This document shows, in pieces, positions 3,401 through 64,000 of a DNA stretch of 64,000 bases (positions are counted from its first letter, which is position 1; each line of letters opens with the position of its first letter). The stretch comes from Candidatus Poribacteria bacterium. Lineage in GTDB: Bacteria; Poribacteria; WGA-4E; WGA-3G. The stretch is taken from NCBI GenBank assembly GCA_964291315.2, contig OZ219753.1, positions 1,760,001 to 1,824,000 on the forward strand. The letters are read 5' to 3'. The notes under the pieces are model-generated. The model made no database searches and had not been told where the DNA came from. It was given only the letters and a program-made list of their open reading frames with translations. Made by a program: the position numbers and the translations under genes.

Positions 3401-3411
3401 AGGAGACCCTT

Positions 3412-19266: not shown

Positions 19267-19288
19267 GCGCTCCGCTACCAAAATCATC

Positions 19289-19317: not shown

Positions 19318-19323
19318 TCCGCA

Positions 19324-47484: not shown

Positions 47485-47585
47485 TTCAGGTTTGCACCAG
47501 CTCAACACACCGCGCGTTTCCGCACGGAACAGGGTGGGTGGGAAGAACAAATAGAGGCGGACATGTAATTCAGGTTTGCACCAGC
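47467..47585 (+). repeat. 35-bp direct repeat duplicating the DUF1156 3' end
   Basis: atagaggcggacat(t/g)taattcaggtttgcaccagc at 47467-47501 and 47551-47585. Confidence 0.9.
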
Positions 47586-47700
47586 ACCTGTTAAGTTGCA
47601 CATTATCCCTTGACAAAAAACCGATATGCATTAAAATAGTGAGAAATTATATGTTTTTCACCACTCATGTACGCATGCACAGCATGTGAAAGGAAAACTC

Positions 47701-48327
47701 ATGCCACAAACACCACCAGAATCAGCAGTCATCCTTTTTGACGGCACAAACCTCAACAATTGGACAAGCTTAGACGGCAGCGCACCGCGCTGGAAAACCG
47801 AAGACGGAGCAATGCTCGTCATCCCACGCACCGGTGACGTAATATCCAAGCAGACCTTCACGGACCACTTCCTCCATATCGAATTCAGATGCCCCGACAT
47901 GCCAGACGCAACCGGACAGGCGAAGGGCAACAGCGGCGTGTTCCTCCAAGGCAGATATGAAGTTCAGGTTCTCGACTCCTACGGCATCCAAGTGCCCGGG
48001 AAGGGCGACTGCGGCGCCATTTACAATCAATTCGCACCCCTCGTTAACGCCTGTAGACCGCCCCTCGAATGGCAGACCTACGATGTCATTTTCCGCGCAC
48101 CGCGTTTCAACGATGCAGGCGAGATGACAGAAGCCCCACGTATCACCGTCATTCAGAACGGCCTAGTCATTATCAACAACGCCCAACTCGCCGGCACAAC
48201 AGGCGGAAGCATAGATTCAAAACTCGCCCACCCAGGACCCCTACGCCTGCAGGACCACGGCAACGACGTTAGATACCGGAATATCTGGGCAGTACCGCTG
48301 CCCCTCAAAGGCTCAGACCAGTATTAG
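47701..48327 (+). CDS. DUF1080 (3-keto-disaccharide hydrolase) family protein
   Basis: LFDG, GNSGVF, YEVQVLDS, WQTYD, LQDHG..VRYRNIW; TTGACA-16-TAAAAT at 47610-47637. Confidence 0.88.
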   Translation: MPQTPPESAVILFDGTNLNNWTSLDGSAPRWKTEDGAMLVIPRTGDVISKQTFTDHFLHIEFRCPDMPDATGQAKGNSGVFLQGRYEVQVLDSYGIQVPGKGDCGAIYNQFAPLVNACRPPLEWQTYDVIFRAPRFNDAGEMTEAPRITVIQNGLVIINNAQLAGTTGGSIDSKLAHPGPLRLQDHGNDVRYRNIWAVPLPLKGSDQY

Positions 48328-48419
48328 CTCTCATTTCAATACGGGGCAGCTGTTAAAACCCCTGCCTCGTTCAATTTCAGAAAATATAGAGGTTGCCGAC
48401 CAATAACAAGGAAAATTTT

Positions 48420-49373
48420 ATGGAAACCCATCAACCGCTACCTACAATGCCCAGACGACGATTGGGACGAACCGAATTAAGCATCCCAGTTATCCCGTTT
48501 GGCACACAAGGATTCGGAAACAACTTCGGCTTCGTCTCAGATGAAGACGCCGTCGCACTTGTCAAGCACGCCGTCTCTATCGGCATCAACCACTTCGATT
48601 GCGCCCGCTGTTACGGCGATTCAATGCGGAAACTCGGACTAGCACTAAAGCAGATTCCACGCGCGGACGTCATCATTACCGCAAGACTCTGCTGCCACTC
48701 CGCTGCGGAATGGGGCGGATACGGAGAAGGAAGACCCGACTACTCCGCCGAACGCGCCATCGCAGACCTCGAAGACCAGCTCCAACTGCTCGGCACCGAT
48801 TATCTCGACGCAATACTCATCCACGATCCCGGCGAGATCGACCCAACCCTCGAAAAGGGCGGAACGCTCGACGGACTGCTCAAATGTAAAGCTCGGGGAC
48901 TCGTGCACTTCCTCGGCTACGGAATGCGTCCACACGACTTCCACCTCAAAGCAATCGCCACCGGCGACGTTGACCTTATTTTGTGTTTCAACGACTACAA
49001 CCTCGTCCGACAAACCGCCGCCGATACTATCCTGCCCGCCGCCGCCGAAGCCGATATCGGGGTCATGAACGGCTGGTCTATCCTGAGGGGGATTCTCACA
49101 GGCGTGGATATCGATGCTGAAATCGCTAAAGGACGATGGCGCAACGACGGCGACATCCCGCAAGCCAGAGAAATTTGGAAATGGTGCCTCCAAGAAGACA
49201 TCAACCTGCTCCAACTCGCACTCCAATTCTGTCTCCGAGAAGGACGGATCCACGGAAACAACATCGGGAATCTCAACGTCGCACAACTTGAAGCCAACGC
49301 CCGCGCAGCCAGCACGCCCTTAACCGAAACAGTATGGGAGAAATACGAGGCACGATTCGGATCTCACAATTAA
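48420..49373 (+). CDS. aldo/keto reductase
   Basis: RRLGRT, GINHFDCARCYG, LGTDYLD..LIHDP. Confidence 0.85.
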   Translation: METHQPLPTMPRRRLGRTELSIPVIPFGTQGFGNNFGFVSDEDAVALVKHAVSIGINHFDCARCYGDSMRKLGLALKQIPRADVIITARLCCHSAAEWGGYGEGRPDYSAERAIADLEDQLQLLGTDYLDAILIHDPGEIDPTLEKGGTLDGLLKCKARGLVHFLGYGMRPHDFHLKAIATGDVDLILCFNDYNLVRQTAADTILPAAAEADIGVMNGWSILRGILTGVDIDAEIAKGRWRNDGDIPQAREIWKWCLQEDINLLQLALQFCLREGRIHGNNIGNLNVAQLEANARAASTPLTETVWEKYEARFGSHN

Positions 49374-49385
49374 TACCGGTGGCGG

Positions 49386-50468
49386 TCAGCATCTTAACTT
49401 ATGCAGAAACTTGTGCGTCGCACGCGGAAGGGGATAATCTGCTAATGCCGTAACCGGCACCCACTTCGCATCCCGCGGCCCATTCAGCACAACCTCACCC
49501 GATTGATAATCGCACACAAACACGTCCACAACTATCTTAAAATGTGTGTACGCGTGCCGCACACGGGTGAGGTATCTTATATCACTCACAGAAAGGTTAA
49601 CAACCTCGCGGATATGCCGAGCACAAGCCGTCTGACCCGTCTCACCTGCAGCGATCCTGCCACTCGGAAACTCCCAAAGGCCACCCAGCAGCCCCTCAAG
49701 CGGCCGTTGTGTGAGTAAAACCTCAGCACCCCTATAGATAACACCGACAGCGATCTGATGTTCCGGCACCGGTTTTGTCTCTCGTCTGCGCGGGTACTCG
49801 TCCTGACGCGCCGTGTGGAACGCCTCACAAAACGCATTGACTGGGCAAACAAGACACGTCGGCCCTTGCGGACGACACACTGTTGCCCCCAGCTCCATCA
49901 TCGCCTGATTGAAAAGCCCCGGCGTATCTAGCACCAGCAGTTCATCCGCTCGCTCCTGATACACTTTCGCTGATTTCGCATCATTAACCGGGGCATCCAT
50001 TAGGAACAGGCGGGCAAGCACCCGCTTGATATTCCCATCTACAGCGGCGTAAGGTTCATTAAAAGCGATGCTCTGCACCGCCGCCGCACTGTAGTCTCCC
50101 ACACCCGGCAACTTCCGAAAGGTCGCATATTCTCTCGGAACTTCACCATTCAGCTCATTCACGATCACCTGTGCAGCTTTGTGGAGGTTCCGCGCCCTGG
50201 CATAATACCCCAAACCTTCCCACACTTTCAACACAGCTTGCAGCGGGGCAGCCGCCAAGCGCTGCACATCCGGAAACCGGGCGATGAACCGCTCATAGTA
50301 GCCCACAACTGTCTTGACCTGCGTCTGTTGGAGCATCACCTCGGAAACCCAAATATGGTAAGGATCATCGGTGTTCCGCCACGGCATATCGCGCCGGTAG
50401 TCGCTGAACCACGCCAGCAGCGCTCTTTGGAACGCTTGCAAGTGTCCAGTTAACGGGTTTTTGCGCAT
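49386..50468 (-). CDS. mutY: A/G-specific adenine glycosylase
   Basis: WVSEVMLQQT, GLGYYARARNL, LPGVGDY, VDGN, CxxxxxxCxxCxxxxxC FeS, NUDIX-like tail. Confidence 0.95.
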   Translation of the reverse strand: MRKNPLTGHLQAFQRALLAWFSDYRRDMPWRNTDDPYHIWVSEVMLQQTQVKTVVGYYERFIARFPDVQRLAAAPLQAVLKVWEGLGYYARARNLHKAAQVIVNELNGEVPREYATFRKLPGVGDYSAAAVQSIAFNEPYAAVDGNIKRVLARLFLMDAPVNDAKSAKVYQERADELLVLDTPGLFNQAMMELGATVCRPQGPTCLVCPVNAFCEAFHTARQDEYPRRRETKPVPEHQIAVGVIYRGAEVLLTQRPLEGLLGGLWEFPSGRIAAGETGQTACARHIREVVNLSVSDIRYLTRVRHAYTHFKIVVDVFVCDYQSGEVVLNGPRDAKWVPVTALADYPLPRATHKFLHKLRC

Positions 50469-50549
50469 ATTAGCGGTGTGTTCGTTGTCCAAATACGTCC
50501 TCCGAATTACGGTCATTACCAGGCCCGTCGGGCATCTCACAAATCACAC

Positions 50550-51269
50550 TCAGGCATCCACAGCGATCCGAAAACCGACGCTATGAATAGCCTGTATCGG
50601 CTCGTACGCGGCCCGGTTCGCACAGCGAGCAGCGAATTCGCCCCGGGCTATCCAGGAACCCCCACGAATCACGCGGCGACGCCCTTCACTCGCCCCCAAC
50701 GGATTCTCCGCAGCCGAGTACTTGTAGGTCTCCTGATGAAACCAGTCGCTGCACCAATCGTAAGCATTGCCCGCCATATCGTAGCATCCGTACGGGCTCA
50801 TACCTGATGGATAGTTCCCGACAGGCATCAACCGCTTGTTCCCAGATTCAGATGTGTTCGCCCGACTCGCATCCCATGCGTCTCCCCAAGGATATTCGCG
50901 AGCGTCGGGGCCACGCGCCGCTTTTTCCCACTCCGCCTCTGACGGCAAACGATAGTCCACGCCCGTGTCCCTGCCTATCCACTCCAAAAAGTGCATTGCA
51001 TCCAACCAACTTACCCCGACGACCGGGCAATCCGGGGCGTTAAGATGTTCTTCTGACCAGAACAGCGGCGGCGAATGTCCCGTCGCCTCTACAAATTCGG
51101 CATACTGAGCATTCGTGACCTGATACGCCCCAACAGCATACGCATCGAGCATAACGCTGCGTTGCGGTTCTTCCGGATCGGTCTTTCGAAGCCCAGTCGG
51201 AATAGTCCCCATGATGAACTCACCCGCGGGGATACGAATTAGCGGATAATCAAACGTTTTAATGTGCAT
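50550..51269 (-). CDS. FGE-sulfatase (SUMF1) domain protein
   Basis: FIMG, VTNAQY, PVVGVSW, RLPSEAEWEKAARG, YDMAGN, RGGSW, GFR. Confidence 0.9.
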   Translation of the reverse strand: MHIKTFDYPLIRIPAGEFIMGTIPTGLRKTDPEEPQRSVMLDAYAVGAYQVTNAQYAEFVEATGHSPPLFWSEEHLNAPDCPVVGVSWLDAMHFLEWIGRDTGVDYRLPSEAEWEKAARGPDAREYPWGDAWDASRANTSESGNKRLMPVGNYPSGMSPYGCYDMAGNAYDWCSDWFHQETYKYSAAENPLGASEGRRRVIRGGSWIARGEFAARCANRAAYEPIQAIHSVGFRIAVDA

Positions 51270-51303
51270 ATCGGTTTTTGTATCCGAACCTCTTAGGTTC
51301 CCT

Positions 51304-51407
51304 TGTAGCATAGACTGTCAGTCTGTGGCTCCGTGGCATAGACTATCATTGTAGCATAGACTGTGAGTCTGTGTGTGCATCTATAGCATCACTCATTAGT
51401 CTGCGCC
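51304..51407. repeat. cluster of 3-4 REP-like units at the left edge of the defence island
   Basis: tgtagcatagactgtcagtctgtg, gtggcatagact, tgtagcatagactgtgagtctgtg, tagcatcact..agtctgcg. Confidence 0.75.
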
Positions 51408-51561
51408 GGAGTAAAAACTTCTCTGTTAATATAGCATATCTCTTACCTCAACCGCAACCTCTCTACTCATTCTAAGCGGAATCTCCGAATTCCGACTCGG
51501 CACATAGAAAGTAGAAAAAGCCGAATATTTAACAGCACTAAACAATTGTCAAAAAAACCCC

Positions 51562-51590
51562 TTGATTTTTTACTAAATATATGATACACT
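51562..51590 (+). promoter_or_regulatory. sigma70-type promoter for SBD-HNH gene
   Basis: TTGATT-17-TACACT with TG extension. Confidence 0.5.
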
Positions 51591-51655
51591 TCATTATACA
51601 TTTATACGTTCGCGATAGTTGCCCTAAATCCGCTGCTCAAAACGAGAGAACGCAA

Positions 51656-52543
51656 ATGACAAAAGAAGAAATTATCCAGAAATTCCAAAACCTCAACGTA
51701 TGGAAAAGAGGGGACCAACGCGCCCCACACAAGCCGTTAGTTATTTTGTATGCAATCGGAAAATTACTGCGCGGTGAAGAAAGTCTTCTATACCGTGAGA
51801 TGGAGGAAGATATCCGAAACTTGTTGCGAAAGTTTGGACCCACACGCCGCAGTTACAGTCCACAATTCCCATTTTGGCGATTGCAAAACGACGAAATATG
51901 GCAGGTGTCTGAAACAGATAGTATCACGCTCACCAGTGGTGGAGATCCTCGTGTAACCGACCTTAGAGCTTATAACGTCTTCGGCTCTTTCAAAAACGAT
52001 ATCCGTACACATCTCCAAAATGATTCTGAACTCACATGTGAAATCGTCCGTATTGTGTTAAACGGCCACTTTCGACCGTCACTCCACACAGATATTCTAC
52101 ACGCTGTTGGAATTGAACTCCCGATCCTAACTGTCGGCGCGAGAACGCTAACATCGGATTTCTGGGAAGATGTCCTCAGAGCCTACCAGTACAGATGTGC
52201 CGTCTGCGGATTTGACCTGCACTTAGGCCTCCAACTCATCGCAATAGAAGCCGCCCACATCAAATGGCCTCAAGCGGGTGGCCCGAATTCAGTAGAAAAT
52301 GGTTTAGCTCTCTGTTACCTACACCAAAAACTATTTGACCTTGGTGCATTTACTTTATCACCAAAATTAAATTTACTTGTATCAGAATCCACAAATGGAT
52401 CCCATGGTCTTAAAGAATGGTTGATGGACTTTCATGACAAGCCGATCCGTTTCCCGCAAAGGCAAGCATATTACCCAAACGAAGATTTCATACAGTGGCA
52501 TCTCAGAGAAGTTTTCAAAGCCCCTTATAGAGAAATAGGTTGA
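51656..52543 (+). CDS. SBD-HNH phosphorothioated-DNA-binding restriction endonuclease family protein
   Basis: RAPHKPL and FPFWRL (sulfur-binding-domain motifs), CAVC...EAAHI...NGLALCYLHQKLFD HNH domain. Confidence 0.82.
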   Translation: MTKEEIIQKFQNLNVWKRGDQRAPHKPLVILYAIGKLLRGEESLLYREMEEDIRNLLRKFGPTRRSYSPQFPFWRLQNDEIWQVSETDSITLTSGGDPRVTDLRAYNVFGSFKNDIRTHLQNDSELTCEIVRIVLNGHFRPSLHTDILHAVGIELPILTVGARTLTSDFWEDVLRAYQYRCAVCGFDLHLGLQLIAIEAAHIKWPQAGGPNSVENGLALCYLHQKLFDLGAFTLSPKLNLLVSESTNGSHGLKEWLMDFHDKPIRFPQRQAYYPNEDFIQWHLREVFKAPYREIG

Positions 52544-52991
52544 CGTTCACTATTAATCCTGTGCTGCTAGACTAAAATTTTCAACGAAAGGGAATCACCG
52601 AGCTTTTCTCCTGAAAAAATGCTTGACATAATTAGCAGTTTAAGATAAAAAAGGCAGAAAATAGGCAATCCAAATAGGATCAAATTTAATCGACAAGACG
52701 CATGAAAAATTTATACACTTACACTCCAATTAAAACCTCAAGGTTACTTAGCAAAAATTGTCGCTCCCGGCAACTTTCTAGCCTCCTAATACCCGCTGCT
52801 GCCGGTATGCTGTCGCAAACAATCACACATTACCCCCCCCACTCCACTAACGATAAGCAAACCGTCCAAAACACATCCGCGCCGCCTGCACCTACTCGCT
52901 GTTTCCTCGAACGGCAGGCGACGCTCTCTTTCGTTCTCATACTTTCCGCTGTCTGTTTCAATTTCTTACCTAGGGTCGGGAGGCATGAAAC

Positions 52992-53963
52992 GTGATTAAC
53001 ACCTCCACAATTCACCCACACATAATCAAACCCTCTTTCACAGGGCATCAGACATTTCCCTTTCGATATACATGGCTGAAGAAGGGCGTGGATGCCGTAG
53101 CAGCAGATCCAGCCATCTTTTTTTACGAAGATGCCTCTGTCACCTTAGGGGTCGGAAAGAACATGATCGGCTCCATCCGCCACTGGTGCCGGGCAGCCGG
53201 ACTCGTCAAAGAGGTTACAAGGCAGCAAGCACAACTCACTATGAACCTTAACGAGAGGCCAAGCAGTAACCGACGCGGACAATTTGTGCCTACTCAACTC
53301 GGTAAAGCTATTTTTGATAAAAGCGGGTTTGATCCCTACCTCGAAGACCCCGCAACCTTATGGCTGATCCACTGGCAGATCGCAACGAATACACAGCAAG
53401 CAACCGCATGGTATTGGGCGTTCAACATCCTAAGAAGCAACCAATTTACACCCCAGACCTTCGCAAGAGATGTCTACAAATGGGCACAACAACAAAAACA
53501 GTCTATGCCCCGCGTCTCTGAAAATACACTTCAGCGAGATGTCAACTGCTTTATCCGTACCTACTGTCAGGCACGCCACGCTCCTACCGTCATTGAGGAC
53601 ACTTTCGCCTGCCCCCTCGTCGAACTCAACTTGATCGCTGAACTACCAGACAGCGACGCTTATGAATTTCAGCGAGGCGATAAAGAGACGCTGCCGATCG
53701 AGATCGTGGCCTGGGCGCTAAATACGTTCTGGCAAAACCACTTCGCCCCGAGAGAATCACTCTCGTTCTCTGACCTGATGTACGCGCCATCAAGCCCCGG
53801 ACGAGTCTTCAGATTAGATGAGGACACAATGACCACCTATCTCGAGAACCTAGAAGAACTCACAAACGGCACATTCCAATACGATGAAACAGCAGGCCTG
53901 AAGCAGCTGTATCGACACGCAGATTTTAACGCGATGAAACTTTTAGAGAGGTACTATGGCTAA
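52992..53963 (+). CDS. DUF4007 protein, SspB-like
   Basis: FTGHQTFPFRYTWLKKG, LGVGKNM..SIRHW, FDPYLED..TLWLIHW, CPLVELNLI, ETAGLKQ. Confidence 0.88.
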   Translation: MINTSTIHPHIIKPSFTGHQTFPFRYTWLKKGVDAVAADPAIFFYEDASVTLGVGKNMIGSIRHWCRAAGLVKEVTRQQAQLTMNLNERPSSNRRGQFVPTQLGKAIFDKSGFDPYLEDPATLWLIHWQIATNTQQATAWYWAFNILRSNQFTPQTFARDVYKWAQQQKQSMPRVSENTLQRDVNCFIRTYCQARHAPTVIEDTFACPLVELNLIAELPDSDAYEFQRGDKETLPIEIVAWALNTFWQNHFAPRESLSFSDLMYAPSSPGRVFRLDEDTMTTYLENLEELTNGTFQYDETAGLKQLYRHADFNAMKLLERYYG

Positions 53964-56900
53964 CCCCAGACTGTCGGAACTTTTTCACATCACGGAACGT
54001 TTCCAACGATCCATACATCTGGAACGCGATTTTTATACCGAAAACGCATTAGAGGGTTACATTCTTACCGTCAAGGCACGAGAAATTCTCACACGCCTTA
54101 TCGAAGCACAAGAGAACCACTCCACATCAAAAGCATGGTCACTCACCGGCCCCTACGGCTCCGGCAAATCCGCATTCGCGCTCTTCACCGCAAAGCTGCT
54201 CGGGAACTCCAACGCCTCCACAACGCAACAGGCCCAAGAACTGCTGAAGCAAGCGGACGTTTCACTCTACCAACGGTTCATGAGCACTCACAATAACGGC
54301 AAGAACATGTCATCAGGTTTCTGCTCCGTGCTCATCTCCGGCGAACGCGCACCCATCACACTTGCACTTCTACGCGGATTAGAGCACGGACTTAACGCTT
54401 TCAACCGAACAGCACCACACGCAACACTCCGCAGGAAAATTAGAGCCCTCTTAAAAACAGCCGAACAAGGCACACCGCCCAACGCCTCCGAAATCACCCA
54501 ACTATTTGAGAGCGCGACAGACGCTATCAGAAAAAAAGGCGGGACAGGCCTCCTTTTAATCATCGATGAACTCGGGAAATTCCTCGAATACGCTGCACAC
54601 TCGCCCGCACACGGGGACGTGTTCGTCCTCCAAACCCTCGCTGAATGCGCCACTCGTACCCAGCAGACACCGCTATTTCTACTGACCCTCCTGCATCAAT
54701 CCTTTGAACAATACGCAAACAGAATCGCAAAATCGCAGCGCGAGGAGTGGGCAAAAGTTCAAGGCAGATTCGAAGATATCGCCTTTGTAGAACCTGCAGA
54801 ACAGATACTACGACTCATCGCCTCCGCTATCCAAAATAGACCCATAGCAATAGATAAAAAACCGATTGACCCCGCTGAAATAAACCTCAAGCCCAATCAA
54901 CTTTCCGAGAATGAATTTAACCAGCTCCTACAAAATTGCCGGCCTCTCCATCCAATTGTAGCCCTTATCCTCGGTTCAATCTTCCGGCGGTTTGCACAGA
55001 ATGAACGATCCCTCTTCGCTTTTCTCAGCTCAAACGAACCTTATGGATTACAAGAATTCCTCTCAAATCAACGTTACGACGGAAACGTCTTGCCGATGCT
55101 GTCAGTCGCCGATCTATACGATTACCTCAACACCAGCATCGTACATCGACTTTACGCCTCACGCGACGGCGAAAAATGGGTGGAAATTGAGATGGCAATT
55201 CGCCGATTGACTGACCCCTCGCCAACGCTCGTTAAACTCATCAAAACCATAGGACTGCTCAATATCGTCGGAGAGGTGAGCACACATCTGAAAGCCTCAA
55301 AACCTATACTCCGTTTCGCCCTCAATGACCACACCGAAAGCTTCGAGCAGGAATTCCAGAACGCAGTGGCACTATTACAAAAACGATCCATTGTTGTCTA
55401 CCGCCGCTATAACGACATTTATACCCTCTGGGAAGGAAGCGATATCGACATTGAGGCGAAACGCCATGAAGCCGAGGGAAACCTCGACCCAAACGAAACG
55501 CTCACAACGTATCTTTCAGAACTCACACCTCCACGACCCCTCATCGCCCGTCGACATCTTTTCGAAAAAGGCACACTCCGCTATTTCACCGTCCGTTACA
55601 CCGACATTGAAGATTTCGACGCGAAACTGAACGAACCCCTAGACGGGGCAGACGGGCTTGTCCTTTACGCGCTCCCCGGAGGCGAAGATGAACTCGAGCC
55701 GTTGGTTGAAAAGGCAACTGATGCACACACCGCCCAATGCAAACAGACCCTAATTGCAATCCCACGCTCCACCCACTTTCTCCGCGAGGCTGTCACCGAG
55801 CTCGCCTGTCTACGCTGGATCTCAGAAAATACACCCGAACTCGAAGGCGACGCCGTCGCAAGACGAGAACTCGCTATCCGATGGGTAGAAGCAGAACGCG
55901 GCGTTGACAATCAACTCAATATTATCTTCAGCGGCGACACCGAAGCACCATGCAGATGGTTCCACAAAGCACATGAAGTAGACATCACATCTCAACGCAC
56001 CAGAAACGAACACTTGTCAAAAATGTGTGACGCAACCTATCATAAAACACCGCTTATTCGAAATGAACTCATTAACCGACGGAAAATCTCCGGCACCGTA
56101 ACAGCCGCTCGAAAGAAATTAATCCAAGCTATACTCGAAAAGGCGGATCAAGAAAACCTCGGCATCACCGGCTACCCTGCTGAAATGAGTATCTACCGAT
56201 CCCTCTTAGTCGAAACAGGCATACACCGTAAAACTTCCGGCATCTGGGGGTTTCACCCACCCAAACCAGATACCGATAAAACCAGCAGCACCCACACATG
56301 GCGCGCAATCGAGTCCTTCCTCGAAACGTGCGAAACCGATCGCCAACCTATCACCCAACTCTACGAAAATCTGATGGCACCTCCGTTCGGACTTCGAGAA
56401 GGCCTACTGCCAATTCTGCTCTGCACCGTAATGCAGCATTACAAAACAGAAATCGCACTCTATGAAAACGGATCCTTTATAGCCGACTGGTCAATGCCCG
56501 TCTTTGAAAGACTGCTGAAAATACCACACCAATTCGAACTGAAACGGTTTCGGATGACAGGCATCCGTTCCGAGCTGTTCACACAATTCGCAGAAACGTT
56601 CAACCACGCAACAACATCCGAAAACCCACAGCTATTAACAGTCATCAAACTGCTCATGCGCGCTATAGCACAACTACCGAAATACACGCTGACAACACAA
56701 GAATTGAGTGATAATGCAAAAAATCTCCGCAGAATCGTCCTGAACGCCCGTGAACCCGACGCACTCCTCTTTAAACAATTGCCCGAAACGTTCGGATTCC
56801 CCGCTTTTAGCACGGAAATGCCAACAGACGCAAAGGTCATTTCAGATTTTCTCAGCACACTGAAAAACGCACTCGCCGACTTGCAGCGCGCCTACGAACG

Positions 56901-57450
56901 CCTACTGAACCTTGTAGAGCAGACCCTAGTAAGGGCGTTCAACCTAACACCGACACCGGAAGAACTCCGCAACGCCCTCGTCGCCCGAGCCGAACCTCTA
57001 TTACCGATAACGATTGAAACCGATCTCAAAGGCTTCTTAATCCAAATCTGTAGCAGCGGACACGACTTCACGAACTGGATCGAGGCAATCGCCACCTATC
57101 TCGCTAAAAAACCGCCAGCCTCATGGATAGATACCGACAGGGCACAATTTGAAATCAACCTTTCTCAACTCGCGAGGAAGTTCCGGCATTTCGAAGCAAT
57201 CGCCTACGAAAAGCGAGCACATACCGATCCAACCGCAGGCGAACCCATTCGAGTCGGTATCACCGCACCAAACCAAACCGAGCAAGAACGCGTGGTTACC
57301 TTGACCGCAACTGCTGATGAACAAACAACTGAAATGGAACACGACATCCGAAAAGTTTTTGACAAATTCAATGTAGACGATAACCCTGAACTTCATATCG
57401 CAATCCTTGCACGAATTTCACAAAAATGGATACGACAACTCGACGAATAG
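53956..57450 (+). CDS. large P-loop ATPase, SspC-like (BrxC/PglY-related)
   Basis: RFQRSIHLERD, GPYGSGKS Walker A, LIIDELGKFLE Walker B, EWAKVQGRF, QNERSLF, PPFGLREG; 8-nt overlap with DUF4007. Confidence 0.8.
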   Translation: MANPRLSELFHITERFQRSIHLERDFYTENALEGYILTVKAREILTRLIEAQENHSTSKAWSLTGPYGSGKSAFALFTAKLLGNSNASTTQQAQELLKQADVSLYQRFMSTHNNGKNMSSGFCSVLISGERAPITLALLRGLEHGLNAFNRTAPHATLRRKIRALLKTAEQGTPPNASEITQLFESATDAIRKKGGTGLLLIIDELGKFLEYAAHSPAHGDVFVLQTLAECATRTQQTPLFLLTLLHQSFEQYANRIAKSQREEWAKVQGRFEDIAFVEPAEQILRLIASAIQNRPIAIDKKPIDPAEINLKPNQLSENEFNQLLQNCRPLHPIVALILGSIFRRFAQNERSLFAFLSSNEPYGLQEFLSNQRYDGNVLPMLSVADLYDYLNTSIVHRLYASRDGEKWVEIEMAIRRLTDPSPTLVKLIKTIGLLNIVGEVSTHLKASKPILRFALNDHTESFEQEFQNAVALLQKRSIVVYRRYNDIYTLWEGSDIDIEAKRHEAEGNLDPNETLTTYLSELTPPRPLIARRHLFEKGTLRYFTVRYTDIEDFDAKLNEPLDGADGLVLYALPGGEDELEPLVEKATDAHTAQCKQTLIAIPRSTHFLREAVTELACLRWISENTPELEGDAVARRELAIRWVEAERGVDNQLNIIFSGDTEAPCRWFHKAHEVDITSQRTRNEHLSKMCDATYHKTPLIRNELINRRKISGTVTAARKKLIQAILEKADQENLGITGYPAEMSIYRSLLVETGIHRKTSGIWGFHPPKPDTDKTSSTHTWRAIESFLETCETDRQPITQLYENLMAPPFGLREGLLPILLCTVMQHYKTEIALYENGSFIADWSMPVFERLLKIPHQFELKRFRMTGIRSELFTQFAETFNHATTSENPQLLTVIKLLMRAIAQLPKYTLTTQELSDNAKNLRRIVLNAREPDALLFKQLPETFGFPAFSTEMPTDAKVISDFLSTLKNALADLQRAYERLLNLVEQTLVRAFNLTPTPEELRNALVARAEPLLPITIETDLKGFLIQICSSGHDFTNWIEAIATYLAKKPPASWIDTDRAQFEINLSQLARKFRHFEAIAYEKRAHTDPTAGEPIRVGITAPNQTEQERVVTLTATADEQTTEMEHDIRKVFDKFNVDDNPELHIAILARISQKWIRQLDE

Positions 57451-57462
57451 AGAGGTCAAACT

Positions 57463-58299
57463 ATGGAACAAGAAACCCGTCATCTGCTGGGGCTCTCCGG
57501 CGGAAAAGATAGCTCCGCACTCGCAGTCTACATGCGCGACAGAGTACCAGAGATGGAATATTTCTTCTCTGATACCGGCAAAGAGCTCCCCGAAACATAT
57601 GAATTCTTAGACCGATTAGAGGCGTTCCTCGGCAAACCGATCGTCCGCCTCAACATGAACCCTGATGCCAGTCAGAACAGAGACTTCGATCACTGGTTGA
57701 AACTTTACGGCGGACTCCTGCCGTCCTCACAAGTGCGATGGTGCACCGTTAACCTCAAAATCAAACCTTTTGAGGAATACGTCGGCGAAGACAGGGCATA
57801 CCACTACATCGCCATCCGCGCCGATGAAGACCGCATCGGCTACAAACCGCCCAAAGTGTCCGCAATCCATAACATTGAACCCAAATACCCCTTCAAAGAG
57901 GACGGCATCACCAAAGAAGACGTCTACCGAATCCTCGAGGAAAGCGGGGTCGGACTCCCCACGTATTACGACTGGCGCACACGCTCAGGCTGCTACTTCT
58001 GCTTCTTCCAGCGCAAATCCGAATGGGTCGGACTCTTAGAGCAGCACCCTGACCTCTTCGAACTCGCAAAATCGTATGAGAAATTCAACACCGAAACAGG
58101 CGAACGATTCACATGGTGCCAAGGCGAAAGCCTAGAGGAACTGTCAGCACCAGAACGAATCGCACAAATCAAAGCAAACACCGAAAAAGCGAAAGCCTCT
58201 AAGAGAGCCGCAAAACCGAATCAGCGACTGATAGAGATACTCACCGATGTCTATGACGATGAAGATGACGAGGAACCCTGTCTCATCTGTCATAAGTGA
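57463..58299 (+). CDS. PAPS reductase-family PP-loop protein, SspD/DndC-like
   Basis: SGGKDS, DTGKE, RWCT..LKIKP, IRADE, RSGCYFCFFQ, C-terminal CLICH. Confidence 0.87.
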   Translation: MEQETRHLLGLSGGKDSSALAVYMRDRVPEMEYFFSDTGKELPETYEFLDRLEAFLGKPIVRLNMNPDASQNRDFDHWLKLYGGLLPSSQVRWCTVNLKIKPFEEYVGEDRAYHYIAIRADEDRIGYKPPKVSAIHNIEPKYPFKEDGITKEDVYRILEESGVGLPTYYDWRTRSGCYFCFFQRKSEWVGLLEQHPDLFELAKSYEKFNTETGERFTWCQGESLEELSAPERIAQIKANTEKAKASKRAAKPNQRLIEILTDVYDDEDDEEPCLICHK

Positions 58300-58344
58300 C
58301 ATCAAATAAAATGCTACCCTATTTAGGAGGAAACAAACAATGGG

Positions 58345-60444
58345 ATGACACTTCGGGCAATACCCGATATTCGACCCCTTTATATACTGCCAAAGGACCC
58401 CGCTATAGAGGAGGTCCTAATTCCATGCTTTCAATCCGCAGGCTCTGTTGATTGCATGATGGGCTTCTTTTCGAGCGAAATTCTGGTGTCGCTTGCACCA
58501 GGTCTAGCAACCTTCATTAATAGCGCAGAGGGGAAGCTGCGCCTAATTATCAGTCCGCTGCTCCGAACCGAAGACAGAGACGCAATAGCCAACGGAATAG
58601 CCTCGCCTGAAGATATCGCGAACGCAACTCTGGAAAACTTTGTTGTTACCGAAAACGCCATCGCACAACATACGTTGAAATGTCTCTCGTGGATGTTACG
58701 TTCCGGACGCTTGGAAATCAAAATCGTCTTGATGAAAGATGCCCTTTTCCATCCGAAAGTCTGGCTCTTTCGCCGGGGGGACGACGTAATAGCAGCACAC
58801 GGATCCAGCAACATGACATACGCCGGCGTCCAGAAGAATATCGAGCAAATGTCCATCTCTAAATCGTGGGCGGACACGAATCAACAATACATCGCAGAGA
58901 AACTTTGTGACCAATTTAGAGAACTCTGGGGAAATCAAGATACCAATTGTACTGTCGTTTCAATCCCGGAAGCACTGAAGGAAAATCTATTGAGCACTTA
59001 TAATCCAGTCCTCCCACCAACTGAAGAAGAATTTCATACGCTTCGCGAGCAGGCTTGCGACCTTGACAGAGACAGATCGTCGCGCCCCACATTCACTATA
59101 CCCCGACACCTTCGATTTGAGGAGGGGCCTTTTGAACATCAAGGACGAGCCGTTAAAGCATGGTGTGAAGCCGGCCATCAAGGCGTTTTGGAAATGGCAA
59201 CCGGCTCAGGAAAAACAGTCACCGCTATGATTTGCACACACCGACTCTACAGTGTGGAGAAACCACTTCTAGTCGTTGTGTCCGCGCCTTACATCCCCCT
59301 TATTCAACAGTGGTGTGATGAAATTTCACCCTTCGGACTCAAGGCGGTTAACCTATCTGAAGCAAGCGGGGCAAGAAAACGAGCCGCCAAGCTTAAAAAA
59401 ATAGAGCGGAGACTCCGATTCGGCAGGAGCAGCATCGAAATTGTCGTCGTTTCTCACCGCACACTTTGCAGTAGCGAGTTTAAAGATGAACTCGAAAAAT
59501 TTGATTTTAAAACGCTGCTTATCGCCGATGAAGTCCACAACCTCGGCAGCGAGGGATTCATAGCGAATCCTCCTGACTTCTTTGACCACAGATTAGGATT
59601 ATCTGCTACCCCAATTCGGCAGTACGATGAGGAAGGAACCGAGCAGCTGTTCGCCTTTTTCGGCCCTATCGTTTTCCAATTCACCCTTGAGGAAGCAATC
59701 GGGCGATGTCTCGTTGAATACGAATACTACGTCCATACAGTAAAACTCACAGAAGATGAAATGGAGAAATGGTACGCACTCACAGAACAGATCAAGAAAA
59801 ACGCTTGGCGACAAGAAGGTGAAGACAGTGAAGATGAGTACCTTATGAAGCTCCTACGAGACCGACGCGCACTCTTAGAAAACGCGGAAAATAAGATTGA
59901 TGCCTTGGAAAAAGTTTTGAGACCCAAAGATCTCCAAAGGCTCCGATACACCCTGATTTATACCTCTGCTACAGGACCGCAGCAGCTCGAAGATGTCAAC
60001 GCCCTACTGAACGAACACAGCGTACTCTTCCATCAACTGACACATAAAGAAGCAAGAAACCGTAAGAAAACCGCACAGATTCTCCAAGACTTCCGAGAGG
60101 GAACGTTGAAGATCCTAACCGCGAAACGCGTGCTTGATGAAGGCGTGAACATCCCAGAAATTGAGAGGGCTTTCATCCTCGCCAGCACCACAGTAGAGCG
60201 ACAATGGGTTCAGCGGCGCGGCAGGCTGCTCCGCACATGTCGCGAAACCGGTAAAACGCACAGTGAAATCCACGACTTCATCGCCTTGCCGCCCGATTTG
60301 GACAACATAGACGACAGGGCCCGTAGGTTAGTAGAATCCGAACTCAAGCGAGTACGAGCATTTGCTTACCTCGCAAAAAACTTTGGCAGACCTGATGGCC
60401 CCTTAAACCACCTCGACCAACTGGTTAAAATCCTTTATACATAG
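58345..60444 (+). CDS. PLD(HxK)-nuclease + SF2 DExH helicase fusion, PbeA-like
   Basis: GFFSS, FHPKVW, HGSSNMT; MATGSGKT, DEVH, LSAT, LDEGVNIP, QRRGRLLR. Confidence 0.82.
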   Translation: MTLRAIPDIRPLYILPKDPAIEEVLIPCFQSAGSVDCMMGFFSSEILVSLAPGLATFINSAEGKLRLIISPLLRTEDRDAIANGIASPEDIANATLENFVVTENAIAQHTLKCLSWMLRSGRLEIKIVLMKDALFHPKVWLFRRGDDVIAAHGSSNMTYAGVQKNIEQMSISKSWADTNQQYIAEKLCDQFRELWGNQDTNCTVVSIPEALKENLLSTYNPVLPPTEEEFHTLREQACDLDRDRSSRPTFTIPRHLRFEEGPFEHQGRAVKAWCEAGHQGVLEMATGSGKTVTAMICTHRLYSVEKPLLVVVSAPYIPLIQQWCDEISPFGLKAVNLSEASGARKRAAKLKKIERRLRFGRSSIEIVVVSHRTLCSSEFKDELEKFDFKTLLIADEVHNLGSEGFIANPPDFFDHRLGLSATPIRQYDEEGTEQLFAFFGPIVFQFTLEEAIGRCLVEYEYYVHTVKLTEDEMEKWYALTEQIKKNAWRQEGEDSEDEYLMKLLRDRRALLENAENKIDALEKVLRPKDLQRLRYTLIYTSATGPQQLEDVNALLNEHSVLFHQLTHKEARNRKKTAQILQDFREGTLKILTAKRVLDEGVNIPEIERAFILASTTVERQWVQRRGRLLRTCRETGKTHSEIHDFIALPPDLDNIDDRARRLVESELKRVRAFAYLAKNFGRPDGPLNHLDQLVKILYT

Positions 60445-60455
60445 CGGAGGATACT

Positions 60456-60698
60456 ATGTCATATAACGCAGAAAAAATGGGAAAACTGATTGAAGACGCA
60501 TGTCAATCTGTTGAAAACAGATCTAACGGCTACAAGAGAAAAGTTATTGATGCCATAGTCGAAATTCTTGAGGCCGAGCGAGACCATAAAACCCGAAGAA
60601 CAAACATCCAGAAAAAAGTAAATGAAGTGTGCCATAGCACGGGTGACTTTCTCATGAAAGAACGCGATATAGATAACCCCAACAATGGAGGCTGCTAA
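60456..60698 (+). CDS. small helical protein, PbeB-like by position
   Basis: 80 aa, GGAGG RBS, stop abuts the next ATG. Confidence 0.65.
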   Translation: MSYNAEKMGKLIEDACQSVENRSNGYKRKVIDAIVEILEAERDHKTRRTNIQKKVNEVCHSTGDFLMKERDIDNPNNGGC

Positions 60699-62798
60699 AT
60701 GAAGTTAATCAGCGCAAAATTTCAAAACTTTCGCCTGCTACGAGATCTAGAGTTGGAGTTCTCGACAAGTGACGACAAAAAACTAACTGTAATTCGAGCG
60801 TCGAATGAAAGCGGAAAAACGACTATCTTAAACGGGCTTCAGTGGGCCCTCTACGGTGATGACGTGTTACCGAATAGAGGTAGAGGATACCGAATGTTCC
60901 CAATCGATTGGAAGAGCTCCGACGGAGGGGCAATCCCGATATCTGTGCAAGTTGATTTCGAGAAAACAACCTCTCGATATCGTCTTATCCGATCGGTGGA
61001 GGAGACAACAGACGGACACAGACAAAATTCGAAGGTAGAATTGTTTGAATTAGCAGAAACCGGGGCTAACCGCATTAATCCACCAGAAGCACAGATCGCT
61101 CGACTGTTGTTACCTCTGAATTTGCGCGAGGTGTTTTTCACCGACGGAGACCGAGCTCTGAATTTCATTGAAGCAGACTCTCAAACAGATAAACGTGGGC
61201 GGATCCAAGGAGCCATTCAATCTCTGTTAGGACTTGATGTGATTGATACTACCTTCAAACATTTAAAAAGGACAATTTCTGGGCTCAATAAAGACTCGAG
61301 GAATATCGGACCTGATACAGATCTCAGCCAAATTGTTACAGAATTGGAGGAGATAAATAAAAATATCGAACACCTTGAAGATAAAGTAGACGATGCGAAA
61401 CAGCAATTCGAGGCAATAGGACACAGTTTGGCAGATATCGATAGGGACATTGAAGCCGCACTGGTTAAGGGAGACCAAGAGGATCTTAATCGTAGGCTGA
61501 AAAGAACTGAAACAGAACTGGATGATCTCGAAAACCAAGAAAAAGAATTGGAAACCGAACACTCACAGCTGTTCAGAAAACCGCTCTTATTCCGAGAGCT
61601 GCTCACACCGGTTTTAGAACAAAGTTTCAAGAAATTGGATGAACTGCGCGATCAAGGGAAACTTCCGAGTCCGACTATTCCCGTACTTGTAGAACGACTC
61701 GCAGGGGTTACATGTATCTGTGGCGAATCATTGGACCAACACTCAGAAAGCGGGAAACAACGTAGAGAGCATATTGAACGCCTCATTAAGGAAAGTGAGA
61801 AGGCAGATGACCTCCAAAAATGCCTTACCGATCTCGATTACGGTTCATTGGAACTGAAACCAATAAAGAACGCCCATAACGACTCCTGGATCGATGAATA
61901 CAGTAAGGTGTCAACGCTTCATCATGAACTTGAAACGAAACGCGAGGAATTAGAAAAGGAACTCGCAGCACTTGAAGTTCAACTGGAAGGCATAGGAAAT
62001 ACCGATATTCAAAAACTTCGCACTACCAAACAGGAACACACTATCCAACGCGAAAGTCTGAACAACACCCGTATAGAGCGTGAAAGAGAACTCGAACGCC
62101 TAAAGGAACGGAGCAGATCCTTGACAGCAACACGTAATAACCTTCTAGCTCAGCAAAGAAAAGGGGCGCTGATACTAGCAAGATTAGATGCGACGCGCGA
62201 CATACAGCAGATCCTCGAAAACGCCTACAACCACATCGTAAACGAAGAATTGCAAAAAGTGAGTCAGCTGATGAACACCCTCTTCCTCGAAATGATTGGC
62301 GCGGATGCCGAACAAGGAGCAATCATTCAGAAAGCAGAGATTAGTGAAGATTTTGATATCCTCGTCTATGGCCCGAGTAAGCGCCCTTTGAACCCTGATA
62401 AAGATTTAAATGGTGCCTCTCGGCGCGCACTCACCACCGCATTTATTCTCGCTCTCACTAACGTAAGCGAAGTGGAGGCACCAAATGTGATTGACACACC
62501 GCTTGGAATGATGGATGGGTATGTCAAACGCTCTGTTCTCAAAACCGCCATCAAAGAAAGTTCACAGCTTATTCTCTTTCTAACGCGTTCTGAAATTAAA
62601 GACTGTGAGGATATTATAAAGAACGAGGCAGAATGTGTGACAACCATTACAAATTCCGCACATTACCCCAATATATTGGTGAACGATCCACATATAAACG
62701 AACCTCAGGCGTTCCGATGTGAGTGCCAGGATCTCGGCGAATGCAAAATGTGTAAGAGGCGAACCGATGTTGAGGTAGAAATCCAAACGGAAACTTAG
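60699..62798 (+). CDS. SMC/Rad50-like coiled-coil ABC ATPase (DndD-related, PbeC-like)
   Basis: NFR, ASNESGKTT Walker A, FFTDGD, coiled coils around CICG hook, LNGASRR signature, VIDTPLG Walker B, C-terminal CxCx5CxxC. Confidence 0.85.
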   Translation: MKLISAKFQNFRLLRDLELEFSTSDDKKLTVIRASNESGKTTILNGLQWALYGDDVLPNRGRGYRMFPIDWKSSDGGAIPISVQVDFEKTTSRYRLIRSVEETTDGHRQNSKVELFELAETGANRINPPEAQIARLLLPLNLREVFFTDGDRALNFIEADSQTDKRGRIQGAIQSLLGLDVIDTTFKHLKRTISGLNKDSRNIGPDTDLSQIVTELEEINKNIEHLEDKVDDAKQQFEAIGHSLADIDRDIEAALVKGDQEDLNRRLKRTETELDDLENQEKELETEHSQLFRKPLLFRELLTPVLEQSFKKLDELRDQGKLPSPTIPVLVERLAGVTCICGESLDQHSESGKQRREHIERLIKESEKADDLQKCLTDLDYGSLELKPIKNAHNDSWIDEYSKVSTLHHELETKREELEKELAALEVQLEGIGNTDIQKLRTTKQEHTIQRESLNNTRIERERELERLKERSRSLTATRNNLLAQQRKGALILARLDATRDIQQILENAYNHIVNEELQKVSQLMNTLFLEMIGADAEQGAIIQKAEISEDFDILVYGPSKRPLNPDKDLNGASRRALTTAFILALTNVSEVEAPNVIDTPLGMMDGYVKRSVLKTAIKESSQLILFLTRSEIKDCEDIIKNEAECVTTITNSAHYPNILVNDPHINEPQAFRCECQDLGECKMCKRRTDVEVEIQTET

Positions 62799-62807
62799 GA
62801 GATTGAT

Positions 62808-63311
62808 ATGGCACAACAATACAACAACCCTTTTTTAAATATGAGTGTTGTTTCACTTGCTACACAGCGACACCACTACGACCGTTACTGCCAAGCAGGA
62901 CAGAAACATATAGTGGATATGAGTCCATTTCCCAGGAAGGTAGACTTCTGGTTTGCAGCACTAGCATTGGCAGCACGTAAGAATCTCAAACCTATCGATT
63001 TAACGAAAGAGAAAACTGTTAACATTATTAGTGGCGATATTTTTAACACCGACGGCTGGCAGGCACAAGCCATAATGTTAATTGCAACAGCCGTCAAAGG
63101 GGATTTAAAGATCGTTCTCGAGCCAAGCCAAATGATGAAGATTGCTAACGGACTCGCAGCCGCAGGCGTTCCACACATTGTGAAAATGCTAGATGCAGGA
63201 CCCTCAAAACCGAGATGGAACCTCTCCGATGAACTCGCAGAACTGCTGCAATCTGATGCTGTTACCGAGGTAAAATCGGATCATCAACGACTCGCGGAAG
63301 CCCTGCGATGA
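62808..63311 (+). CDS. small protein, PbeD/DndE-like by position
   Basis: 167 aa, AGGAG RBS, SPFPRKVDFWF and ANGLAAAG motifs. Confidence 0.6.
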   Translation: MAQQYNNPFLNMSVVSLATQRHHYDRYCQAGQKHIVDMSPFPRKVDFWFAALALAARKNLKPIDLTKEKTVNIISGDIFNTDGWQAQAIMLIATAVKGDLKIVLEPSQMMKIANGLAAAGVPHIVKMLDAGPSKPRWNLSDELAELLQSDAVTEVKSDHQRLAEALR

Positions 63312-63499
63312 TTCTATAACCGCACCGAAAATACCCAAAATATGGGATAATTGAGGGTTTTCGGCTCGGTAATGATATAACGCCCTCTTTGTGATGATAA
63401 CTGAGGCCGCTAGTGCCTCGGGAGTTTCCAACTTCGCGAAATCATTATTAAACAGAAAACTCTCCTTTTTTGATGCTCGGCACGAAACTCTGAATCAAC

Positions 63500-64000
63500 A
63501 TGAACACAAAGCAACTTTTCGACCAACTTTATCGATCTAAAACCGAAGACGATGTCGATCGAGTCATCAACGCACATCCGGACATTTTCGAAGCCGATAA
63601 AAACTGGCATCCCCTCGGGGGCAACGAAAACAACTTCGGTGTCATCGAAAATCAACAATCAACACCGATTGCAGCTTTGATTGAAAAGATCACAAACGCT
63701 ATTGATGCCGTTTTAATGAAAAAATGTCTGGAAGCAGGCATCGATCCCAAATCCAAGCAAGCTCCCAGCTCAATGGAAGAAGCCAAAGTCAAATTTTTTG
63801 CAAATCACAGAGATTGGGATCTCCCACGAACCCGAAAACAACAAGCAGAAAATATCCAAATTATCGCTGACGGCCCAAGGCTGAAACCTTCTTTGATTAT
63901 TTATGACGACGGTGAAGGGCAACACCCAGAAGAATTTGAGAAAACGTTCTTGTCATTATTGGGCGGCAATAAGACAGAGATCCACTTTGTCCAAGGCAAA
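63500..64000 (+). CDS. GHKL (HATPase_c-like) ATPase protein, N-terminal part (runs off window end)
   Basis: Not in ORF track. Manual translation gives MNTKQLFDQL...NWHPLGGNENNFGVIENQQ...LIEKITNAIDA (N-box)...IYDDGEGQ (G1 box)...FVQGK. Confidence 0.75.
   Translation, partial: MNTKQLFDQLYRSKTEDDVDRVINAHPDIFEADKNWHPLGGNENNFGVIENQQSTPIAALIEKITNAIDAVLMKKCLEAGIDPKSKQAPSSMEEAKVKFFANHRDWDLPRTRKQQAENIQIIADGPRLKPSLIIYDDGEGQHPEEFEKTFLSLLGGNKTEIHFVQGK

Follow-up and report, generated by a model that had tools for sequence, protein, structure and literature searches.

Gene content of the locus

The stretch of DNA analysed here, hereafter the window, comprises 64,000 nucleotides (nt) of a Candidatus Poribacteria genome (assembly GCA_964291315.2, contig OZ219753.1, positions 1,760,001 to 1,824,000, forward strand). 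Towards its end, seven co-oriented genes encode a putative DNA phosphorothioation (PT) writer of the SspBCD type and a putative effector of the PbeABCD type, and a gene for a sulfur-binding domain (SBD)-HNH endonuclease lies shortly upstream. These genes, which probably belong to one PT-based defence island, are the subject of this report. An open reading frame (ORF) check recovered the seven genes at 52992-63311, all on the forward strand. An earlier reading of this DNA from its letters only (the sequence-only reading) had described them as tightly packed, and both the coordinates and the spacing were confirmed: sspB and sspC overlap by 8 nt, and gaps of 12, 45, 11, 0 and 9 nt follow. The motifs claimed for SspC, SspD and PbeA were also found. 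Moreover, Pfam and PADLOC agree with the proposed identities, i.e., an Ssp writer and a Pbe effector, for SspB, SspC, SspD, PbeA and PbeC.

The first three genes encode the writer. SspB (52992-53963, 323 amino acids, aa) carries DUF4007 (Pfam, 304.9 bits, cut-off 27; PADLOC SspB, E 2.8e-99) and is, by family assignment, the predicted DNA-recognition component. SspC (53956-57450, 1164 aa) is a BrxC-like P-loop ATPase, matched by PADLOC with 1117.6 bits (E 0) over residues 13-1081, with the Walker A motif GPYGSGKS at residue 65. SspD (57463-58299, 278 aa) is a PP-loop, PAPS-reductase-like sulfurtransferase (PADLOC, E 9.3e-117 over the full length; Pfam PAPS_reduct) with SGGKDS at residues 12-17 and cysteines at positions 94, 177, 180, 219, 273 and 276. 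It is the only SspD in the window's genome, and DndC is absent from the whole genome. As for an assignment to BREX type 4, SspC and SspD score far higher on the Ssp models than on the Brx models, and none of the scanned ORFs matched PglZ or BrxL.

The lack of SspE, DndFGH, PglZ/BrxL and a cysteine desulfurase had already been pointed out for the window, and it holds for the locus and for the 17 kb beyond the window. No PADLOC model for SspE, DndFGH, PglZ or BrxL was matched in this range. Among the larger ORFs from 51.5 kb of the window to 17 kb past its end, only the Ssp models B, C and D were matched, the presence of an SspFGH model in PADLOC being unconfirmed. The genome's only DUF262 genes are found more than 1 Mb from the locus. 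No gene of the locus matched a cysteine desulfurase model in Pfam or PADLOC. Elsewhere in the genome, there are four strong class-V aminotransferase genes (Aminotran_5), so that a cysteine desulfurase supplying sulfur in trans, as proposed in the sequence-only reading, is plausible. That IscS can stand in for SspA is accepted in the literature (Wang et al. 2021; PMC8092258).

The next four genes form the Pbe module. PbeA (58345-60444, 699 aa) is a fusion of an HKD (PLD-family) endonuclease with an SF2 helicase (PADLOC, E 9.7e-202, 670 bits; Pfam PLDc_2, ResIII and Helicase_C). It reaches 379.5 bits, below the cut-off of 600, on TIGR04095, 'DNA phosphorothioation system restriction enzyme'. The HKD motif (HPK...GSSN, residues 136-156) is conserved in 32 of 33 homologues, and the two helicase motifs (GSGKT at residue 287, DEVH at residue 395) in all 33. 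The genome holds one true PbeA. The 80-aa protein encoded next (60456-60698) is placed as PbeB by its position, and the stop of its gene abuts the start of pbeC. By tblastn, 36 of the 39 related loci have a homologue in the same position; its identity of 26-62% is lower than that of any other of the seven genes. This fits the 'rapidly evolving small protein' described between PbeA and PbeC in the CxC systems (Rakesh et al. 2024; PMC10853773). Neither the 80-aa protein nor the 167-aa product of the last gene matched a family model in Pfam, PADLOC or NCBIfam.

PbeC (60699-62798, 699 aa) was identified by PADLOC (E 1.1e-59) and Pfam AAA_23. Its best NCBIfam match is DndD (TIGR03185, 121 bits, below the cut-off). 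A CxC motif, C339-I-C341-G, lies in the middle of the protein, and CxCG is present in 41 of 41 aligned PbeC sequences from both of the lineages described below. The label 'SMC-like' (structural maintenance of chromosomes) given in the sequence-only reading has to be dropped: SMC proteins are defined by a hinge at the apex of a coiled coil of 800-1000 residues, and PbeC, with 699 aa in total, a CxC motif at its midpoint and DndD as the closest curated family, is by its sequence a CxC/DndD-type ABC ATPase. Indeed, Rakesh et al. (2024; PMC10853773), whose text supplies these SMC criteria, note that PbeC was earlier mistaken for an SMC protein.

The 167-aa protein (62808-63311) was examined by structure prediction. 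Its sequence profile matched nothing in the PDB. From an alignment of 30 homologues, an AlphaFold2 model was obtained with a predicted local distance difference test score of 75.9 and a predicted template modelling score of 0.70, and a Foldseek search with this model returned weak DndE rows only. On the model, the protein is PbeD with a DndE-like fold, and it is predicted to be the DNA-binding partner of PbeC.

An SBD-HNH gene upstream of the writer

The sequence-only reading had seen no other partner in the window. Outside the interval it considered, 448 nt upstream of sspB, lies a gene for an SBD-HNH endonuclease (51581-52543, forward strand, 320 aa). The protein matches NCBIfam NF045808, 'phosphorothioated DNA-binding restriction endonuclease', over residues 30-313 with 322.2 bits (cut-off 180). 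It consists of an N-terminal sulfur-binding winged-helix domain and a C-terminal HNH domain (Pfam HNH_2), and residues 43-155 align to the SBD structures of ScoMcrA (5zmo/5zmm, E 7.5e-9). Among 16 homologues, the SBD positions H50, P52, P97 and F98 are invariant, and K51 and W99 are nearly so (90% or more). The sulfur-recognition residues of SBD enzymes are described as 'HR or HK, and YP' (Lutz et al. 2020; PMC7461809). In the window's protein, H50-K51-P52 and P97 are conserved at these positions; the residue before P97 varies and is a phenylalanine here. The nuclease positions C206, C209, H226, N240, C245 and H248 are invariant in the same homologues.

Pairing of Ssp and Pbe genes

The pairing was followed in related loci, obtained by scanning one genome per species. 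This gave 39 loci with a PbeA 52-79% identical to that of the window, 33 of them near full length (L numbers denote single loci, G numbers surveyed genomes). Gene maps covering the content within 10 kb of PbeA were drawn with local hidden Markov models and tblastn. Most of the loci belong to Candidatus Poribacteria and the rest to Latescibacterota, Chloroflexota, Alphaproteobacteria, Acidobacteriota and an actinomycete fragment. SspC and SspD are both present in 26 of the 39, spread over at least five phyla. In a further five, SspD alone was found; two of these are cut at the contig or locus end (L015, L027) and one has a broken PbeA (L048). Two loci carry the PADLOC candidate genes PDC-M33A/B/C (L033, L036), two have no writer (L040, L041), and four are too short to judge. 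Co-conservation of the last four genes with DUF4007 operons, on which the sequence-only reading had made its proposal depend beforehand, is thus seen in these 26 loci and again in the phylum survey below.

The contiguous gene order of the window recurs in 16 of the 39 loci. Elsewhere, SspBCD follows PbeABCD, either on the same strand (L034, L044) or convergently (L030, L045), or else its genes flank PbeABCD on both sides (L043). In several loci outside the Poribacteria (L023, L026, L037, L034, L044), a cysteine desulfurase adjoins SspB. The Latescibacterota loci share 67-70% identity with the window in PbeA and only 24-25% in SspC and 30-31% in SspB. Closely related PbeABCD modules are thus joined to very different SspBC types.

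A survey of 176 genomes of the window's phylum found SspD in 123, DndC in 64, PbeA in 55 and PbeA of class II in 24. The PbeA scores are bimodal, with class I at 700 bits or more and class II, which includes that of the window, at 650-700 bits. Distances between genes were computed by script on the listed coordinates. Among the 27 class I loci, DndC lies 5.1-10.4 kb from PbeA in 25, and SspD is never closer than 116 kb. The 25 class II loci show the reverse: SspD is 70-2,773 bp away in 23, at most 300 bp away in 18, and DndC is within 12 kb in none. The two exceptions are contigs without any SspD. Seven lower-scoring or fragmentary PbeA rows were kept separate; one is near SspD, two are near DndC and four are near neither. 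Where a genome holds both writers (G174, G171, G045, G129), class II PbeA still stays beside SspD. Hits to PT genes are confined to three of the phylum's eleven families, and such genes are unusually common in the phylum.

Six class I loci were fetched for comparison. Their PbeA-(B)-C-D genes are convergent with DndC-DndD-DndE, and their proteins share 31-33% (PbeA) and 22-24% (PbeC) identity with those of the window. A quick maximum-likelihood IQ-TREE run, with support from the Shimodaira-Hasegawa-like approximate likelihood ratio test (SH-aLRT) only, split the six Dnd-linked PbeA rows from 36 class II rows on long branches with 100% SH-aLRT support. Chloroflexota rows without Ssp genes were unresolved at the base of class II. 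Since class II PbeA is found beside SspD and class I beside DndC, with no swaps, the Pbe genes of the window form a dedicated Ssp-type lineage. The sequence-only reading had explained the operon as an Ssp writer cross-paired with a Pbe module of the Dnd type, which the separate lineage, its place beside SspD and never beside DndC, and the low PbeA identity contradict.

The pairing also occurs in cultured bacteria. CP099618.1, a complete plasmid of a Sphingomonadaceae isolate, carries an uninterrupted run SspA-SspB-SspC-SspD-PbeA-B-C-D beside an integrase gene. The products are annotated, in order, as cysteine desulfurase, DUF4007, 1100-aa ORF, PAPS reductase, DEAD/DEAH helicase, 74-aa ORF, AAA ATPase and 148-aa ORF, and none of the eight genes is annotated as a member of a system. 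Each of the seven window proteins has a homologue on the plasmid, in identical order and at 28-49% identity, and PADLOC and Pfam confirmed SspB, SspD, PbeA, Aminotran_5 and AAA_23. In several cases, SspD/PbeA among them, adjacent genes overlap by 4 nt or lie at most 2 bases apart. A chromosomal Ssp-Pbe version was found in Oleispirillum naphthae Y-M2. The eight-gene plasmid version and the Oleispirillum locus make the pairing testable at the bench.

The loci with incomplete or unusual writers bear on a different view of the operon, in which writer and effector would be one combined machine of a Type-I-like kind. PbeC and PbeD would recruit SspD, direct PT writing at sites of their own and also license PbeA; SspD would serve both SspBC and PbeCD or, in loci lacking SspBC, only PbeCD. 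The predicted DndE fold of PbeD and the closeness of PbeC to DndD among the NCBIfam families agree with this. So do the loci L019 and L025, where SspD immediately precedes PbeABCD and neither SspB nor SspC occurs within 10 kb, and the second SspD just after PbeD in L021 and in G092 (G092:C4:149879-150679). Moreover, in L033 (15301-21700) and L036 (15035-19402), both from Dehalococcoidia, PbeABCD is located beside PDC-M33A/B/C, the C component of which carries a fused SspD-like PAPS-reductase domain. However, 26 of the 39 loci keep a full SspBC, which such a machine would make redundant. Loci with SspD alone may have decayed, or their genomes may encode SspBC at another site, and SspD shares only 28-30% identity with DndC-like proteins, in the N-terminal part. 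On balance, such a machine is improbable. PDC-M33ABC itself may represent a third PAPS-reductase-based writer paired with Pbe. L033 additionally contains a DUF262-type 'Orf5'/HEC-06-like gene.

Distribution of the SBD-HNH gene

Among the 39 related loci, 13 have an SBD-HNH homologue upstream of SspB, and a fourteenth (L048) has one behind the broken PbeA. In the phylum survey, 78 of the 176 genomes had NF045808 matches above the cut-off, with a total of 83 listed hits. Of these, 33 lie immediately behind SspD, at most 150 bp downstream; nine more are downstream within 3.5 kb, two are downstream within 12 kb and 21 are upstream within 12 kb. Three hits are more than 12 kb away, and 15 are on contigs without SspD. 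All 65 hits within 12 kb are on the SspD strand, which corresponds to 63 of the 123 genomes with SspD and 63 of the 78 with SBD-HNH. With class II PbeABCD located after SspD, the HNH gene is found upstream of sspB, as in 16 of the 24 class II genomes. Several genomes have two SBD-HNH genes per locus, for instance in tandem in G047 and G172. In L020, they are located at 3215-4201 and 19022-19909, and one of the two is very divergent (25% identity).

The SBD-HNH family is thus a commoner neighbour of SspBCD in the phylum than PbeABCD is, and PbeABCD is therefore not the only candidate effector, contrary to what had been assumed from the letters. The sequence-only reading stands as regards the genes, the absent partners and the co-conservation; its ad hoc cross-pairing, SMC label and sole effector do not.

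Relation to known systems

The closest described arrangement is the haloarchaeal DndCDEA-PbeABCD system (Xiong et al. 2019; PMC6459918), which also combines an HKD-SF2 helicase, a small protein, a CxC ABC ATPase and a DndE-like protein beside a PT writer. Its layout is found in the window's phylum as the class I loci. The locus described here differs in that the writer is SspBCD instead of DndCDE, the genes are co-directional and operon-like instead of convergent, and the two Pbe groups form separate clades, with no exchange of writers in the 176 genomes.

The families SspB, SspC and SspD are common to the window and to SspABCD-SspE, in which IscS can replace SspA. No SspE is present in the window's locus, however, and PbeABCD occupies the effector position after SspD. 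SspABCD-SspFGH likewise couples an Ssp writer to a multi-gene effector, SspFGH damaging DNA without PT (Wang et al. 2021; PMC8092258), but the effector genes here, for an HKD-helicase, a CxC ABC ATPase and a DndE-fold protein, are unrelated to it. The same study reports that 2,211 of 2,678 sspBCD clusters (~84%) are without sspE and sspFGH and predicts more restriction partners. The Ssp-specific PbeABCD lineage and the SBD-HNH family are two concrete candidates for partners of such clusters.

Rakesh, Aravind and Krishnan (2024; PMC10853773) described the CxC systems, and PbeA with HKD and SF2 domains, a small PbeB, PbeC with a CxC zinc hook and a DndE-cognate PbeD all match the present genes. 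In their account of genomic settings, some of these systems neighbour DndD-centred PT writers, others neighbour cytosine methylases, and others stand alone; this portion of the paper mentions no SspBCD partner. The finding that the PbeA lineages track the writer argues for a coupling of PbeABCD to PT, as in Xiong et al. (2019), and against an independent CxC system, as in Rakesh et al. (2024).

As for the SBD-HNH protein, ScoMcrA, SprMcrA and EcoWI (Lutz et al. 2020; PMC7461809; PDB 5zmo, 7cc9) share with it the NF045808 family, the region of the SBD fold and the HNH motif. The known enzymes cut PT-DNA and are reported to be rare near dnd clusters, whereas the family described here is co-oriented beside Ssp writers in 63 of 78 genomes. 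This linkage implies a cognate PT-sensing effector role or a different sequence context. It counters the avoidance of PT writers that would be expected from PMC7461809 and suggests PT sensing like that of SspE or DndI. Rakesh et al. (2024; PMC10853773) reported wHTH-SAD-HNH nucleases in the Dnd loci of 698 taxa and proposed them as restriction partners. In IscS-DndBCDE-DndI (PMC11662687), DndI is a single PT-sensing nuclease/ATPase which is coupled to the writer and leaves self DNA when PT is sensed, and it is a possible functional analogue of the SBD-HNH protein. DndI senses double-strand Dnd marks, unlike in the Ssp writer setting, and the likeness proposed here concerns function.

No description of SspBCD beside PbeABCD or of Ssp-linked SBD-HNH genes was found in the published literature, although supplementary survey tables may list such loci. 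The components all belong to known families, and their Ssp-Pbe combination is common in the phylum (class II PbeA in 24 of 176 genomes).

Proposed mechanism and its alternatives

The locus is best read as one PT-based defence island of three modules, an Ssp writer, an Ssp-dedicated Pbe effector and an SBD-HNH reader of PT, to which a probability of roughly 60% is given. Behind this reading stand the observed gene identities and motifs, the lineage-specific linkage of both Pbe and SBD-HNH genes to Ssp genes, and the modelled DndE-like fold of PbeD. SspB, SspC and SspD, serving in DNA recognition, as ATPase and as PP-loop sulfurtransferase, respectively, would install PT on host DNA with sulfur supplied by a cysteine desulfurase encoded outside the locus. 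PbeC and PbeD would act as a DNA-scanning pair, paralogous to DndD-DndE, and license PbeA, an HKD nuclease and SF2 translocase, to damage DNA lacking the Ssp mark. The small, fast-evolving PbeB might modulate the Pbe complex. The SBD-HNH protein would read PT directly and serve as a second PT-sensing nuclease, with a logic like that of SspE or DndI, which are precedents of PT-sensing effectors (PMC9646914; PMC11662687). From the genes we infer PT synthesis, a motif to be marked, the sparing of PT-DNA by PbeABCD and some way for the HNH protein to avoid self DNA.

A more specific version is put forward tentatively. PbeABCD would exist as writer-matched lineages, the present one would read single-strand Ssp marks via PbeCD, and one writer would feed both the SBD-HNH and the helicase-nuclease reader. 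If so, the SBD-HNH proteins considered here would be cognate, self-sensing Ssp effectors and not attackers of foreign PT-DNA, and identifiable partners would exist for a large part of the 'orphan' sspBCD clusters.

Several points weigh against the three-module reading. In 33 loci, SspD is immediately followed by SBD-HNH and Pbe genes are absent, so that SspBCD does not need PbeABCD, and the SBD-HNH protein of the window could be the sole true partner of SspBCD. Its own place in the island raises a difficulty as well. Characterised SBD-HNH enzymes cut PT-DNA and are reported to be rarely (<3.6%) found near dnd clusters (Lutz et al. 2020; PMC7461809), and a PT-cutting enzyme beside a PT writer is paradoxical unless its role or its sequence context differs. 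Furthermore, residue 249, the second histidine of the LHH motif beside the zinc-finger cysteine, is a glutamine only in the window and a histidine in the other 15 of 15 homologues; Q249 may lower or change the nuclease activity. In the two writer-less loci, PbeA is present without its HKD part. The relatives belong mostly to one phylum and to related habitats, and the loci are not independent samples. Finally, CxC/Pbe systems without PT writers are reported from many taxa, and their role as restriction partners was doubted (Rakesh et al. 2024; PMC10853773).

Some of these points could also mean that the modules are independent neighbours in one island. SspBCD would then work only with SBD-HNH or be an orphan writer, and PbeABCD would be an autonomous CxC-ABC/HKD-helicase system, co-inherited with the writer, which neither reads nor needs PT. 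The CxC systems without Dnd genes in numerous taxa, the 33 Pbe-less SspD-HNH loci and the class II-like Pbe genes without a writer nearby in L040 and L041 all agree with this, as does the presence in the island of other defence-like genes, for a GHKL ATPase and a Type ISP-like methyltransferase. Such independence is nonetheless unlikely. None of the 25 class II loci is near DndC and none of the 27 class I loci is near SspD, even in genomes with two writers. The genes are on the same strand with gaps of 70-300 bp in 18 of the 25 class II loci, and SspD and PbeA overlap by 4 nt on CP099618.1. Moreover, the linkage survives changes of phylum, gene rearrangements and divergent SspBC types, and in two of four Ssp-less loci another PAPS-reductase module adjoins Pbe.

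The small PbeB protein opens another possibility, namely abortive infection. PbeB would be a labile inhibitor, and its removal or modification by a phage factor would turn PbeA against the DNA of the host cell; PT would tune or localise the complex with no role in telling self from non-self. This was proposed for CxC systems on account of the small disordered protein, and archaeal Dnd-Pbe is cited in the same paper as active without degrading viral DNA (Rakesh et al. 2024; PMC10853773). PbeB also evolves faster than PbeA, with 26-62% against 52-79% identity. Nevertheless, abortive infection of this kind leaves the strict writer-specific linkage unexplained and seems very unlikely.

Surroundings of the locus and accessory genes in relatives

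The GC content drops from about 0.55 to 0.44-0.50 near 51 kb of the window. Upstream of 51.3 kb, the genes are of the housekeeping type (MutY-like, FGE-sulfatase-family protein, aldo-keto reductase), and housekeeping genes resume about 6.4 kb beyond the window end, downstream of the island. No tRNA was found in 45000-64000, and the edges of the island showed no integrase. The spacer between the HNH gene and sspB (52544-52991) contains the start of a 97-aa ORF (52702-52995), which was considered as an eighth gene and rejected. Its translation is of low complexity, it has no homologue in the 39 related loci (tblastn, phmmer) and no match in Pfam, PADLOC or NCBIfam, and it is probably not a gene. 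A single weak promoter-like site lies at 52690-52719, and such sites are not above chance in the region. Indeed, scans of 50500-64000 gave fewer promoter and terminator sites than shuffled controls (10 vs 14.3 and 14 vs 17.4, respectively) and thus define no operon boundaries.

Downstream of PbeD, the start of an 818-aa gene for a GHKL-like ATPase (63500-64000, forward strand) crosses the window end and continues at 500-2956 of L001. Its match to HATPase_c_3 is weak (E 7e-4 to 1e-3, below the cut-off), and no sequence homologue was found in the 39 related loci. The next gene (L001, 3134-6214) encodes a 1026-aa Type ISP/IIG-like N6-adenine methyltransferase (Type_ISP_C, 345 bits) without the helicase-nuclease part. 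Together, these two genes may make up an additional defence module of the island. L010 and L028 carry partial homologues of the methyltransferase after their Pbe genes.

GHKL ATPases (HATPase_c_3 or HATPase_c) also occur in or after Ssp-Pbe clusters of relatives: L015 (1225-2961), L043 (7552-9321), L025 (5026-6756 and 7945-9858), L035 (15173-17068) and L027 (15055-17454). In L015 and L043, the ATPase is paired with a conserved 162-aa ORF between SspD and PbeA, and L048 has ORFs of matching size and placement. DndB-like genes (PF14072) were identified by scanning after PbeD in L010 (15300-17768) and L014 (15480-16571). ORFs of similar size, about 360 aa, follow PbeD in L011, L012, L020, L031, L032, L038, L039 and L047, so that an ORF of this kind is found in many Poribacteria loci, in some preceded by an unassigned 455-aa ORF; neither the ~360-aa nor the 455-aa ORF is present in the window.

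Some genes are split or truncated, through internal stops or as fragments, namely SspC of L020 (169 + 965 aa), PbeA in G028:C15 and G102:C1, PbeA of L048 (a fragment of 129 aa), and PbeA and PbeC of L044, which are in two pieces. This suggests frequent decay of the system or assembly errors.

Other genes are inserted between SspD and PbeA in single loci. L018 encodes a 774-aa SspE-like DUF262-DUF1524 protein (7576-9897), so that SspE-like and Pbe effectors can coexist. A 417-aa DUF262-HNH protein is found in L039 (8690-9940), a GIY-YIG protein with a DndB-like protein in L037 (7497-9396), and a gene for a BrnT-family ribonuclease toxin in L023 from Latescibacterota (9526-9849).

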